A stretch of 64,000 nt of DNA from assembly GCF_055900595.2 (NCBI RefSeq), contig NZ_CM148325.1, one strand, 5' to 3'. The notes under the pieces are model-generated. The model was not told where the DNA came from, made no database searches, and worked only from the letters and a program-made list of their open reading frames with translations. Positions 48,596 to 51,811 of this stretch are shown in pieces (the stretch's first letter is position 1; each line of letters opens with the position of its first letter). The position numbers and the translations under genes are program-made.

Positions 48596-49753
48596 ATGAA
48601 TCCAGTACCCGCGCAACGTGAATATTTCCTCGACTCCATCCGCGCCTGGCTGATGTTGTTAGGGATCCCTTTTCATATTTCTTTAATCTATTCGAGCCAT
48701 ACATGGCATGTGAATAGCGCCGAACCGTCATTGTGGCTGACCCTTTTTAATGACTTCATCCACTCGTTCCGCATGCAGGTATTTTTCGTTATATCCGGGT
48801 ACTTTTCTTACATGCTTTTTTTACGCTATCCCTTGAAAAAATGGTGGAAAGTACGTGTCGAACGTGTAGGGATCCCGATGTTAACAGCCATCCCCCTACT
48901 GACATTGCCGCAATTTATTATGCTGCAATACGTCAAAGGGAAAGCGGAAAGTTGGCCTGGGCTGTCATTGTATGACAAATATAATACGTTGGCCTGGGAA
49001 TTAATATCACACCTGTGGTTTTTACTGGTGTTAGTGGTCATGACGACGCTATGCGTATGGATATTTAAACGCATCAGAAATAATTTAGAAAATTCTGATA
49101 AAACGAATAAAAAATTCTCGATGGTAAAATTATCGGTGATTTTTTTGTGCCTCGGCATCGGTTATGCGGTAATAAGAAGAACGATTTTTATTGTGTATCC
49201 ACCCATTCTGAGTAACGGCATGTTCAATTTTATTGTCATGCAAACGTTATTTTATTTGCCGTTCTTTATCCTCGGCGCACTGGCTTTCATTTTCCCTCAT
49301 CTTAAAGCCTTGTTTACCACGCCGTCTCGTGGCTGTACCCTTGCAGCAGCATTGGCGTTTGTCGCTTATTTACTCAACCAGCGCTATGGCAGTGGCGATG
49401 CCTGGATGTACGAAACCGAGTCGGTGATCACCATGGTCCTCGGTCTGTGGATGGTGAATGTGGTCTTCTCCTTCGGCCACCGTTTCCTTAACTTCCAGTC
49501 AGCGCGGGTGACTTACTTTGTTAACGCATCGCTATTTATCTATCTGGTTCACCACCCGTTAACGCTGTTTTTCGGCGCGTACATTACACCGCACATCACC
49601 TCCAACTGGCTTGGTTTTCTCTGTGGCCTGATATTCGTAGTAGGGATTGCGATAATTCTGTATGAAATTCATTTACGCATCCCGTTACTGAAGTTTTTGT
49701 TCTCTGGTAAACCGGTTGTTAAGCGTGAGAACGATAAAGCACCAGCCCGTTAA
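48596..49753 (+). CDS. opgC: OPG succinyltransferase (membrane acyltransferase)
   Basis: 385 aa polytopic membrane protein. Confidence 0.93.
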
Positions 49754-49760
49754 GCCGCGT

Positions 49761-51182
49761 TTACAATAACCATTCCACAGGCAATATCGACGCCAGTCTG
49801 ACCATAACCCGCTTCCAGAAACTGGTAGCGGGTTCTTTTTTGAGAACAATTTCTTTCTTTGCATGACGATCAACCCAGTTGATCCGCCCCCACCTGTCCA
49901 GACGGAGCTGCCAGGCCGCATCATACTGGCTCTGAATAAAGCGTTTATCAATTAACTGTGCCAGCGTTTCGCTCTCTATCACGAACCCCATTTCAGTATT
50001 GAGCAATGTCGAACGTGGATCGAAATTGAAAGAGCCAATAAACACCGTTTTACCATCGATGCTAAAGGTTTTAGCATGCAGGCTGGCACCGGAATTACCG
50101 GTTATGCCGCGATCGTGTAACGTACTACTTTGTTCACGCGTCGGCTTGAGTTCATATAATTCCACGCCGTAGCGGAGCAATTTTTTGCGCCAGCGCGCGT
50201 ATCCGGCATGGACGACAGCAACATCGTTAGCGGCAAGAGAATTGGTTAGGATCGCAATCTTTACCCCTTTTCTCACCATCCGTAAGAGTTGCGCCACACC
50301 TGCGCGTGTCGGTACAAAATAGGAAGAGATAATATCGATGCGTTCACTGGGTGAGCCCATGATATCGAACAGGCGCTGCGGTAACAGTGAATGCCGTTTT
50401 GCCTTGCCTTCCCCTTTCGCCGGATCATCACTTAATAAACGTGTTTTCGCCCAGATAAGCGGCAACGTTCCATCAACCAGATGATTTATAAACGGGCTGG
50501 ATTCCATTTTGCGTAAATAACGATGCGTCATGGCATCGTCATGCCAGGAGGCGGGTAACTCGATGCGATCCGCCATTTCACCTTCCGGGACATCCAGCAC
50601 CTGCTGTAAGGGTGAAACCGATTTACAATACCAGTAGCGGGCGAAATCATCGGCAACGTCCTCTACAACTGGTCCTATTGCCATGACATCTAAATCCGAA
50701 AAAAGTGGCTCTTCCCCTGCACCAAAATAGGCATCACCAATATTTCGTCCCCCCACCAGAGTCACCACACCATCGACGGTGAAACTTTTATTGTGCATAC
50801 GGCGATTGAGACGGGAAAAGTCGGTGATATAACCAAGCGGACGTAGCAGTCGAAACGAAAAAGGATTAAAAAGTCGGACTTCAATGCGGGGATGACTGTC
50901 AAGCAAGCGTAAAATGTCGTCAAGTCCGGGTGTATTGTTGTCGTCCAGCAACAAACGGACGCGAACGCCACGCTTTGCTGCGGCTAACAGGGCGGAAAAC
51001 AGTAACCGACCCGACATATCGTCCTGCCAGATGTAATACTGAACATCCAGCGTATGCTCTGCCATTTCGGCCAGACGATACCGGGCGGCAAACGCATCCA
51101 GACTTTTCTCCAGAGGAAAAAGGCCACACTGACCGGGATGTTGCGAACACAGTGGCAGCACCGCGCTCGCCAGCCGGGGCAA
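49761..51182 (-). CDS. clsC: cardiolipin synthase C (PLD family)
   Basis: Two HxK(x)4D phospholipase D motifs (RRMHNKSFTVDG, ASLHAKTFSIDG). Start uncertain: TTG at 51180..51182 gives 473 aa; ATG 9 nt upstream or ORF-track start 51251 are alternatives. Confidence 0.85.
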   Translation of the reverse strand: MPRLASAVLPLCSQHPGQCGLFPLEKSLDAFAARYRLAEMAEHTLDVQYYIWQDDMSGRLLFSALLAAAKRGVRVRLLLDDNNTPGLDDILRLLDSHPRIEVRLFNPFSFRLLRPLGYITDFSRLNRRMHNKSFTVDGVVTLVGGRNIGDAYFGAGEEPLFSDLDVMAIGPVVEDVADDFARYWYCKSVSPLQQVLDVPEGEMADRIELPASWHDDAMTHRYLRKMESSPFINHLVDGTLPLIWAKTRLLSDDPAKGEGKAKRHSLLPQRLFDIMGSPSERIDIISSYFVPTRAGVAQLLRMVRKGVKIAILTNSLAANDVAVVHAGYARWRKKLLRYGVELYELKPTREQSSTLHDRGITGNSGASLHAKTFSIDGKTVFIGSFNFDPRSTLLNTEMGFVIESETLAQLIDKRFIQSQYDAAWQLRLDRWGRINWVDRHAKKEIVLKKEPATSFWKRVMVRLASILPVEWLL

Positions 51183-51183
51183 A

Positions 51184-51717
51184 TCATTCATCTCCTTGTT
51201 GGGTAAGGAGTCTTTCGTAGAGGTGGGCGTTTTCTTCATCATAACAGACAAAGTATACCTGTTCGGGTAAAGCGTGACGGGTAATAAATTCTGAAACGGT
51301 TTTTACTGCGATTTCAGCCGCTGCCGCGCGAGGGTAACCATAAACCCCAGTACTAATTGCAGGAAAAGCCACTGACGTATAGCTGTTTGCCGCCACCAGT
51401 CGTAGGCTATTGAGATAGGCATCCTGCAAAAGCTGGTCTTCGTTTTGTTCACCACCACGCCAGACTGGGCCGACGGTGTGCACTACGGCTTTCGCGGGAA
51501 GATCGCCTGCAAGCGTAATAACGGCATGCCCCGTAGGGCAATCGCCCTGCTGTTGCCTGACTTTTAAACAGGCATCCAGAAGGGCCGGACCCGCTGCGCG
51601 ATGAATGGCTCCATCGACGCCGCCGCCTCCCATTAATGACGGATTAGCCGCATTCACAATCACATCAACGGCCAGTTTGGTAATATCACCCTGCACAACA
51701 TGAATACGCGTTTTCAT
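51184..51717 (-). CDS. ymdB: macrodomain O-acetyl-ADP-ribose deacetylase YmdB
   Basis: 177 aa, [25 protein letters not shown]. Confidence 0.95.
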
Positions 51718-51811
51718 AACGCCTCCTTACACCTTCTTGTTTCTTAAGTGTACAGCAGGCTTTTTGGTTAAATCGCATTTTTCTGCTCAGCAAGGTGAGT
51801 TGTTCAGAAAC

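Follow-up and report, generated by a model that had tools for sequence, protein, structure and literature searches.

Candidate in-frame translation starts of clsC at the ymdB-clsC junction of Escherichia coli

Introduction

Termination-reinitiation coupling takes place at adjacent or overlapping stop-start junctions, the classic examples being trpE-trpD and trpB-trpA of E. coli. Genes with two in-frame initiation sites, such as E. coli infB, clpB and cheA, give rise to a long and a short protein. Long same-strand overlaps between genes also occur in bacterial annotations, and these are often start-site mispredictions.

Here, we consider the translation start of clsC, which follows ymdB on the minus strand of a 64,000-nucleotide stretch of E. 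coli DNA (hereafter, the window; NCBI RefSeq assembly GCF_055900595.2, contig NZ_CM148325.1). According to PMC8027125, which summarises earlier work, ClsC makes cardiolipin from PE and PG. More ClsC is described there from clones including ymdB, the adjacent ymdB being reportedly needed for full output (PMC8027125). Overproduction of YmdB in trans changed clsC mRNA only 1.1-fold (PMC4222554). The reading that we prefer, to which we assign a probability of about 0.45, is that translation of clsC in this E. coli can begin in frame at either of two functional sites of the ymdB-clsC messenger.

Gene models and public annotation of clsC

The two gene models of clsC, its upstream neighbour and its catalytic motifs are as follows:

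49761..51182, minus strand: short clsC reading frame, 473 aa and a stop codon, the curated K-12 model (b1046); two PLDc_2 domain matches
49761..51242, minus strand: long clsC reading frame, 493 aa and a stop codon, the RefSeq PGAP model; 59-nt overlap with ymdB
51184..51717, minus strand: ymdB, O-acetyl-ADP-ribose deacetylase, 177 aa; stop TGA at 51186..51184
50772..50795, minus strand: first HKD motif of clsC, HNKSFTVD, read from the sequence
50055..50078, minus strand: second HKD motif of clsC, HAKTFSID, read from the sequence

ClsC carries two PLD (HKD) catalytic motifs and two PLDc_2 stretches (E 1.7e-40). The gene is orthologous to E. coli K-12 b1046, with the shared context csg-ymdA-ymdB-clsC-opgC; the protein matches the RefSeq ClsC of strain Z0117EC0005 exactly, and the DNA is about 98% identical to K-12-like genomes. 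The minus-strand clsC frame is open from 51302, the in-frame TAA upstream being 51305..51303, and contains the in-frame starts TTG 51251, ATG 51242, ATG 51239, ATG 51191 and TTG 51182. The open reading frame was listed as 49761..51251 on the minus strand, with 496 aa from a TTG. In the E. coli genomes inspected, the PGAP model of clsC has 1482 nt and 493 aa, starts at ATG 51242 and overlaps ymdB by 59 nt, whereas the curated K-12 gene (NC_000913.3 b1046, NP_415564.2) has 1422 nt and 473 aa and starts at a TTG one base past the ymdB stop; the long and short products differ by 20 residues. The public annotations of the clsC start are thus in conflict and the ambiguity, which a preliminary description of this DNA had pointed out, is real, being borne out by both the competing in-frame starts and the split annotation.

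The choice of start determines the protein that is cloned, tagged, purified and modelled, i.e., 473 aa (K-12 and the review literature) versus 493 aa (the RefSeq records inspected). NCBIfam contains no ClsC-specific model, and only generic cardiolipin synthase/PLD models match, all of them below cut-off; an NCBIfam anchor for the N-terminus was therefore rejected, since none exists. A lipoprotein assignment through the sequence LPLC was likewise discarded, as LPLC is not a lipobox and its Cys is missing in relatives.

The candidate start at the ymdB stop codon

The elements around the ymdB stop codon are the following:

51180..51182, minus strand: TTG, candidate start of the 473-aa form, 1 nt past the ymdB stop
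51192..51197, minus strand: AAGGAG, a hexamer resembling a Shine-Dalgarno (SD) sequence, 9 nt upstream of the TTG; encoded within ymdB by CAA-GGA-GAT, in which GGA is a rare Gly codon
51205..51210, minus strand: CUCCUU, predicted 5' arm of a 6-bp hairpin pairing with AAGGAG; loop 51198..51204
51143..51170, minus strand: 12-bp hairpin within clsC, beginning 9 nt past the TTG

As previously described, TTG 51182..51180 lies 23 codons downstream of the start listed for the open reading frame and gives a 473-aa product. The reported spacing of 8 nt is corrected here to 9 nt between AAGGAG (51197..51192) and TTG (ATGAATGAT). The clsC start had also been placed 2 nt from the ymdB stop; the adjacency holds, although the gap is exactly one base (51183), and 2 is the coordinate difference.

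The arrangement AAGGAG-N9-TTG is present in a single copy in the window (expectation, 0.41), and 31 of 100 shuffles contain one or more copies, so that by motif count alone it is statistically not unusual; its weight derives instead from its position and conservation. Of 5423 E. coli genomes, at least 5416 carry the same central 22 nt, SD and TTG included, and about 1500 have variants in the flanking 12 nt. A TGA-n-TTG junction is shared by E. coli, an 87% relative, C. amalonaticus, C. sedlakii and C. tructae, while the junction reads TGA-t-ATG in the C. freundii group, ATGA (an overlap) in C. werkmanii, and TAA/TGA-n-GTG in Dryocola, Cedecea and Buttiauxella. Hence, the homologous start is kept in the C. 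amalonaticus group (as TTG) and in the C. freundii group (as ATG), in agreement with the earlier proposal that the TTG with its AAGGAG is a credible start. TTG makes up about 10% of the Leu codons in the compared ymdB genes, yet it is retained in five of the seven lineages of the 'QQGDE' group. The junction is thus kept in the E. coli/C. amalonaticus, C. freundii and Cedecea groups and is missing from E. albertii, Salmonella and about ten other genera; AAGGAG is replaced by AAGGCG or AAGGTG (Gly GGC/GGT) in E. albertii, Salmonella and Citrobacter.

Translational coupling, as suggested in the preliminary description, is plausible: stop and start lie 1 nt apart on one strand, and the SD inside the upstream reading frame is predicted to be sequestered in a hairpin within ymdB (−6.2 kcal/mol, z −2.4), an arrangement that fits coupling. 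According to folding across relatives, this CUCCUU/AAGGAG hairpin would be confined to alleles carrying AAGGAG. In C. werkmanii, in-frame stops lie upstream of the start at the ymdB stop (one draft genome, in which a 2-nt difference is possibly an assembly error), suggesting that the short form of ClsC suffices there.

Candidate starts inside ymdB

Further upstream, four elements were considered, together with an ATG close to the TTG:

51240..51242, minus strand: ATG, candidate start of the 493-aa form, made by ymdB codons TAT+G
51237..51239, minus strand: second ATG, 492 aa; site at −57 flagged by tetracycline-inhibited ribosome profiling (TetRP)
51241..51264, minus strand: ymdB codons 152-159 (GAA CAG GTA TAC TTT GTC TGT TAT), conserved at synonymous sites; proposed upstream initiation region
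51249..51251, minus strand: TTG listed as start of the open reading frame, 496 aa, unlikely; AGGT 5 nt upstream, in-frame TGA in Phytobacter
51189..51191, minus strand: ATG, 476-aa form, unlikely; three codons upstream of TTG 51182, SD spacing 0, not conserved

A simple thermodynamic model scores all clsC sites as weak (TTG 51182, +5.9 kcal/mol; ATG 51242, +9.5 kcal/mol) compared with −2.6 kcal/mol for ymdB's own start. The alternatives named earlier were an ATG three codons upstream of the TTG, which is indeed present at 51191, and TTG 51251; both rank among the weakest candidates, and the list was incomplete, overlooking the in-frame ATGs at 51242 (493 aa) and 51239 (492 aa). We regard a clsC start at ATG 51191 (476 aa) or TTG 51251 (496 aa) as very unlikely. 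ATG 51191 has the best start codon and is shared by E. coli, E. albertii, C. tructae and the C. freundii group; however, it adjoins AAGGAG directly, is modelled at +14 kcal/mol, reads AGG in C. amalonaticus and ACG in C. sedlakii, and can be regarded as a by-product of the ymdB codons GAT-GA. TTG 51251 has AGGT at the ideal 5-nt spacing, lies inside the conserved patch and is modelled at +6.6, close to TTG 51182, but it corresponds to an in-frame TGA in Phytobacter, where the next ATG is retained.

The true competitor of TTG 51182 is ATG 51242/51239, which is the RefSeq start and also coincides with a TetRP signal that its authors called inconclusive. At −57 (ATG 51239), TetRP profiling gave 0/30.1/16.1, versus 0/0/5.7 at the annotated TTG, and the authors considered the −57 signal inseparable from elongating ribosomes on ymdB. 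The supplements of TRAINSPOTTER, Giess 2017 and the Salmonella riboproteogenomics paper contained no match to clsC/ymdC, and a literature search for clsC together with TTG returned nothing relevant. Frameshifting into a YmdB-ClsC fusion was also considered and can be practically dismissed, the region having no slippery or stall context.

ATG 51242 is kept in every ymdB-clsC lineage having Tyr at ymdB codon 159. No ATG, GTG or TTG is found near the ymdB stop in E. albertii (TTA, with AAGGCG), 'Pluralibacter' S54 (CTG), Salmonella, Leclercia, Lelliottia, Enterobacter, Pseudescherichia, Superficieibacter, Atlantibacter, Siccibacter, Kosakonia, Cronobacter and Franconibacter. When these genera were compared, no alternative clsC start position was common to all: in some, the conserved RL motif is preceded by a GTG/TTG at a distance of 8-12 codons or by an ATG at 16 codons, and in Leclercia and Enterobacter ENT03 the nearest clsC start is the ATG cluster homologous to 51242. 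By sequence comparison, ATG 51242/51239 thus appears to be the sole canonical clsC start common to about a dozen related genera. Moreover, the motif T-x-x-T followed by RLGRA, common to distant homologues, lies upstream of or spans the ymdB stop in the genera lacking a junction start, showing that clsC coding must begin further upstream there. Relatives without an alternative start keep both the open frame and the upstream start, and in about a dozen genera the overlap is unavoidable because no alternative start is conserved.

The region around this ATG is itself conserved. Codons 152-159 form the gene-wide minimum of synonymous diversity in ymdB, both in the E. coli/C. amalonaticus group (0.108, the average over the gene being 0.497; P=0.0075) and, taken separately, in the genera with only the upstream start (0.118 versus 0.526; matched by 0 of 4000 shuffles). 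These permutation values overstate independence, as the compared sequences are phylogenetically related. In the C. freundii group, the minimum was not seen (0.30 versus 0.41). The constraint appears, from these alignments, to be limited to ymdB genes that are followed by clsC and have no ATG at their stop, the controls without an overlapping clsC comprising three sequences only. Over codons 161-170, synonymous diversity is back at the gene average (0.50); a reduction along the whole ymdB/clsC overlap was thus not found, only codons 152-159 being constrained, and the 20-residue extension of ClsC does not appear to be under selection at the peptide level.

With random synonymous codons for YmdB, the clsC frame is open in only about one-third of draws, and it is open in all upstream-start lineages compared; for E. 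coli alone, the openness falls short of significance (P about 0.33) and could be a remnant. Four of the five C. freundii-group genomes have an open upstream frame despite the ATG at the ymdB stop, indicating that openness can persist as a relic. As a control, Pseudocitrobacter, in which no clsC follows ymdB, has TAC in place of TAT and a closed frame. In Phytobacter, ymdB now ends 184 nt before the aligned clsC start, and a decayed copy of the ymdB stretch, ATG included, lies upstream of clsC.

The conserved patch could serve another purpose. A minus-strand promoter scan at the patch revealed no promoter-like site and no conserved −35, and an internal promoter was rejected as its cause on this basis; a search of the region for known RNA families gave no match. 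It is also conceivable, although we hold it to be unlikely, that only TTG 51182 is used (473 aa), the upstream ATGs and the open frame being ancestral relics and the patch serving otherwise, e.g., in the translation of ymdB or as a standby site for coupled initiation. The TTG indeed has a strong SD at a workable spacing, built from a rare Gly codon, is retained against codon bias and lies at a stop-start adjacency kept in three lineages, and the upstream ATG has no SD and a worse model score. C. werkmanii manages without the upstream frame, and the four C. freundii-group genomes with a persisting frame agree with a relic. However, even in the E. coli/C. amalonaticus group taken alone, no part of ymdB is under stronger synonymous constraint than the patch at ATG 51242, and this constraint is relaxed in the group that has an ATG at the ymdB stop. 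In addition, the TetRP signal at −57 exceeds that at the TTG, and clsC is intact in the sister species E. albertii, which has neither the TTG nor AAGGAG.

Conversely, only the upstream ATG (51242 or 51239) may be used, as in the 493-aa RefSeq model, the TTG being an ordinary Leu codon and AAGGAG incidental to Gln-Gly-Asp codons. In favour of this, the ATG is the sole canonical start position across about a dozen genera including Salmonella and E. albertii, follows a conserved initiation-region patch, is retained in the Phytobacter relic and coincides with the TetRP signal at −57, and AAGGAG-N9-TTG is no rarer than chance in 64 kb. We nevertheless consider it improbable: TTG is retained one base past the ymdB stop in five diverged lineages despite its low share among Leu codons, the C. 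freundii group carries ATG at the homologous position, and the strong internal SD is fixed across E. coli together with the predicted hairpin arm that pairs with it.

That both sites are functional would accommodate the two conservation signals, i.e., the TTG kept against Leu codon bias, and the ATG (TAT, not TAC) kept together with the synonymous patch, each exceeding what ymdB as the overlapping gene would demand. ATG 51242 sits in a translated region behind a U-rich stretch and lacks a suitably spaced SD.

Two proposed initiation sites on the ymdB-clsC messenger

We infer that each site would be used in vivo as follows. At the first site, AAGGAG would be held in the hairpin within the ymdB coding region, and UUG 51182 would follow one base past the ymdB UGA. 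Ribosomes translating ymdB would open the hairpin and terminate beside the UUG, so that initiation there may be coupled to ymdB translation and yield the 473-aa protein. The second and probably older site would be AUG 51242 (or 51239), 60 nt inside ymdB, giving a protein of 493 or 492 aa whose extra 20 residues may represent a variable, unconstrained leader. In evolutionary terms, the upstream AUG alone would come first (Salmonella, Enterobacter, Cronobacter and others), followed by both sites (E. coli and the C. amalonaticus group), and finally by a start at the ymdB stop only (C. freundii group). Among present-day relatives, the TTG is dispensable in E. albertii and the upstream frame in C. 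werkmanii (single draft genome).

On this reading, initiation signals and coupling that reside within ymdB could act in cis to produce the higher ClsC output from clones containing ymdB. If the signals lie inside ymdB, a clone made from the annotated TTG would be without them, which would account for the effect in cis. We propose tentatively, with the odds somewhat against it, that the 'YmdB requirement' of ClsC is such a cis property of the messenger rather than a protein-protein effect, and that E. coli is midway in a migration of the start codon, with two N-terminal forms. If this is true, the last 80 nt of ymdB hold both clsC initiation regions, i.e., an ancestral AUG that lacks an SD and is maintained across Enterobacteriaceae by synonymous constraint, and a derived UUG at the ymdB stop that is gated by the hairpin. 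The start would be migrating from inside ymdB to its stop codon, and the ratio of the two ClsC forms would be set by how heavily ymdB is translated. The question of the clsC start may thus offer a testable cis explanation of the reported ymdB effect. For annotation, the locus provides a 59-nt overlap that resembles a miscall, yet is unavoidable in many genera.

Comparison with known systems

ClsC itself is the PE/PG-using E. coli cardiolipin synthase of the PLD superfamily, the same gene and an enzyme without any difference, only its translation start being in question. The case is otherwise ordinary, as start-site ambiguity and coupled junctions are common and of a known kind.

We note likenesses and differences with respect to each of the known systems. 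First, as in trpE-trpD and trpB-trpA, clsC and ymdB share strand and transcript, with stop and start 1 nt apart, and the clsC SD lies inside the upstream coding region, masked by a predicted hairpin, at a junction conserved in some relatives (ATGA in C. werkmanii). Unlike in the classic coupled pairs, the clsC start is a weak UUG, many related genera have no junction start, and the coupling is predicted from the arrangement. Second, like infB, clpB and cheA, clsC has two in-frame starts, 60 nt apart, with separate conservation signals; in those genes, the long and short products have each been detected and frequently have different functions, whereas the clsC forms are predicted from sequence, and the 20 extra residues of ClsC show no peptide-level constraint. 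Third, the RefSeq clsC resembles a miscalled start in overlapping ymdB by 59 nt with no SD, whereas, unlike in a miscall, the overlapped region around the clsC start is under synonymous constraint.

Locus and candidate start codons

The window contains the csg-ymdA-ymdB-clsC-opgC region of E. coli, with 100% identity to strain Z0117EC0005 and about 97.8% identity to K-12-like genomes, in both cases over 2.1 kb. The ymdB-clsC locus was found in 5423 of 5426 complete E. coli genomes. The gene under study is that of ClsC itself, whose protein carries two HKD motifs and two PLDc_2 matches. On the minus strand, the clsC frame has an in-frame TAA at 51305..51303 and is then open to its stop at 49763..49761, with five canonical in-frame starts ahead of the conserved protein.

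Candidate clsC starts and junction signals
51251, minus: TTG, start of the ORF track, 496 aa
51242, minus: ATG, 493 aa
51239, minus: ATG, 492 aa
51197..51192, minus: AAGGAG, 9 nt ahead of TTG 51182
51191, minus: ATG, 476 aa
51186..51184, minus: ymdB stop TGA, 1 base before TTG 51182
51182, minus: TTG, 473 aa

The preliminary description called the clsC start ambiguous, and public records already disagree on it: RefSeq PGAP begins at ATG 51242 (493 aa, 59-nt overlap with ymdB) in every E. coli record inspected, whereas the curated K-12 MG1655 protein NP_415564.2 has 473 aa from the TTG, 1 base past the ymdB stop. The spacing of 8 nt given there between AAGGAG and TTG is 9 nt by our count. A ribosome-profiling study (Nakahigashi et al. 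2016, PMC4909307) listed ymdC, i.e., clsC, with a candidate new start, an ATG at −57, which corresponds to 51239 when the coordinate is checked against a K-12-like genome. The reported signal was 0/30.1/16.1 at −57 vs. 0/0/5.7 at the annotated site. The authors graded the −57 start as 'not conclusive' because the upstream gene, within whose coding sequence it falls, is strongly expressed. No further initiation-site or N-terminal data on clsC were found in the literature searched.

The choice narrows to TTG 51182 and ATG 51242/51239, each of which is backed by the comparative data. Use of another start is improbable: ATG 51191 and TTG 51251, which the preliminary description offered as alternatives, fall in the least likely class, the former adjoining the Shine–Dalgarno (SD) sequence and not being conserved, the latter being a stop codon in Phytobacter.

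The TTG at the ymdB stop

Among relatives collected through ClsC or YmdB similarity, a start codon 1 base past the ymdB stop was found in three sets of lineages.

Junction forms in E. coli and relatives
TGA-n-TTG: E. coli (three diverged alleles), an 87% relative, C. amalonaticus, C. sedlakii, C. tructae
TGA-t-ATG: C. freundii group; C. werkmanii has an ATGA overlap with in-frame stops upstream (frame break based on one draft genome)
TAA/TGA-n-GTG, five codons further upstream: Dryocola, Cedecea, Buttiauxella

TTG accounts for only about 10% of Leu codons in the compared ymdB genes. Among ymdB codons for identical residues, 52–61% differ when E. coli is set against the other genera compared. 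The retention of TTG across lineages with nearly saturated synonymous sites speaks for a role as start codon, beyond that of a mere Leu codon. At least 5416 of 5423 E. coli genomes have the same 22 nt from AAGGAG to TTG, and the 12 bases flanking this stretch vary in about 1500. AAGGAG is yielded by the rare Gly codon GGA, for which relatives without AAGGAG use GGC or GGT.

In the predicted fold, AAGGAG is fully paired to CUCCUU seven bases upstream (−6.2 kcal/mol, z −2.4), with UUG 51182 in an unpaired stretch; this hairpin is restricted to alleles with AAGGAG and, lying inside ymdB, could be opened by ribosomes finishing that gene. As a free-standing ribosome-binding site, TTG 51182 is weak in a simple thermodynamic model (+5.9 kcal/mol, vs. 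−2.6 kcal/mol for the start of ymdB), mainly because of local structure, which fits a reliance on ymdB translation. Inside clsC, a predicted 12-bp hairpin (51143–51170, minus) begins 9 nt past the TTG and is the source of much of the predicted initiation cost there. A silent ymdB polymorphism common in E. coli, ACC to ACT at 51202 (e.g., in the B2 strain APEC O1), falls within the SD hairpin loop and, in the clsC extension, replaces Pro by Leu.

The ATG inside ymdB

In E. albertii, TTA replaces TTG and AAGGCG replaces AAGGAG; 'Pluralibacter' S54 has CTG at the TTG position. In 11 genera (Salmonella, Leclercia, Lelliottia, Enterobacter, Pseudescherichia, Superficieibacter, Atlantibacter, Siccibacter, Kosakonia, Cronobacter and Franconibacter), that position is a codon for Thr, Lys, Pro or Ser, with no ATG, GTG or TTG near the ymdB stop. 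The motif T-x-x-T|RLGRA, common to ClsC of these genera and distant homologues, is located at or ahead of the ymdB stop, so clsC coding in the 11 genera must begin upstream. A few have GTG or TTG 8–12 codons ahead of the RL motif and one has ATG 16 codons ahead; Leclercia and Enterobacter ENT03 have no start closer than the ATG cluster homologous to 51242, which is the only start position common to all these relatives.

ATG 51242 is created by ymdB codons TAT+G, and all clsC-linked lineages with Tyr at position 159 encode it by TAT. With the YmdB protein fixed, random synonymous codons would leave the clsC frame open in about one of three cases; it is open in all lineages examined for this. 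Two natural controls agree with this. Pseudocitrobacter, with mdoC rather than clsC next after ymdB, encodes Tyr 159 by TAC and Val 154 by GTC and has a closed clsC frame. In Phytobacter, the aligned clsC start comes 184 nt past the end of ymdB, yet a decayed copy of the ymdB stretch precedes clsC with the ATG intact and TTG 51251 turned into an in-frame TGA. At the P. massiliensis locus (L019), this duplicated ymdB 3′ end occupies about 1320–1500, between a complete ymdB and clsC, and provides clsC with its start region.

When ymdB was analysed codon by codon, synonymous diversity had its gene-wide minimum at codons 152–159 (51264..51241).

Synonymous diversity, codons 152–159 vs. gene mean (permutation P values ignore shared ancestry)
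E. coli and C. amalonaticus group: 0.108 vs. 0.497, P 0.0075
Genera with upstream start only: 0.118 vs. 0.526, 0 of 4000 shuffles
C. freundii group (ATG at stop): 0.30 vs. 0.41, not the minimum

Diversity is back at the gene average downstream of ATG 51242, and Pro is commonly replaced by Leu in the E. coli extension, so the 20 extra residues are unconstrained as a peptide; the constraint is limited to the initiation region.

Choice of start and its history

In E. coli, constraint still shows on both sites, and from sequence we tentatively infer use of both TTG 51182 and the upstream ATG (probability roughly 0.45). That the junction TTG acts alone, as its conservation might suggest, is rather unlikely beside the constraint at codons 152–159; that ATG 51242/51239 acts alone, as the 11 genera might suggest, is somewhat less likely still beside the invariant AAGGAG–TTG stretch. 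The simplest history would have three steps. The ATG inside ymdB would be the original clsC start; a second start would then have arisen at the ymdB stop in the Escherichia–Citrobacter lineage (UUG) and, as a separate event, in the Cedecea group (GUG); finally, the old initiation region would have decayed where the new start turned AUG (C. freundii group).

Clones of clsC with ymdB yield more ClsC 'by an unknown mechanism', an unanswered question in reviews (PMC8027125). Other authors have read this as an effect of YmdB protein. When YmdB was overproduced in trans, clsC mRNA changed by only 1.1-fold (PMC4222554), and the title of a 2024 paper says that ClsC substrate specificity does not require the ymdB product. 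We hypothesize a cis effect, which would fit the anatomy, since the last 80 nt of ymdB contain signals for both coupling and initiation.

Wider family and neighbourhood

In distant beta- and gammaproteobacterial homologues (L042–L083), the 50 codons N-terminal of the match hold a lipobox-like L-x-[GAS]-C in 22 of 39, its Cys 22–25 residues ahead of 'RLGRA', and the remainder mostly have a hydrophobic N-terminal segment; 'LPxLExR' occurs in 24 of 39. These proteins resemble exported lipoproteins or membrane-anchored proteins, whereas Enterobacterales ClsC has no signal peptide, a contrast that bears on ClsC topology. In Erwiniaceae (Erwinia, Pantoea; L023–L037, L053), clsC lacks ymdB upstream, Mixta excepted, and starts at a conserved M-x-E-A-F with a strong SD, 15–18 codons ahead of 'RL'; the ClsC leader thus differs by family.

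Ten pig-associated E. coli genomes (e.g., NZ_CP075462.1, locus L084) carry a divergent ymdB-clsC allele, 80–90% identical to 49700–51800, with clsC labelled only 'phospholipase D family protein' and ATGATG, AAGGAG and TTG all kept. Five of the E. coli assembly matches to 49700–51800 lie on plasmid-labelled records. Downstream, clsC (minus) and opgC/mdoC (plus) converge with 7 nt between stop codons (49751–49763), which leaves no space for separate terminators; terminator-like hairpins are found within the coding ends.

Comparison with known systems

The ymdB-clsC junction shares sequence-readable features of termination–reinitiation coupling, and TTG 51182 would have the usual anatomy of a coupled start because its masking hairpin lies inside ymdB, where finishing ribosomes would open it. 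Dual in-frame starts are likewise a known arrangement; for clsC, the candidate sites are read from DNA and both products are putative. The 59-nt overlap looks typical of miscalled starts, yet such an overlap is unavoidable in many genera.
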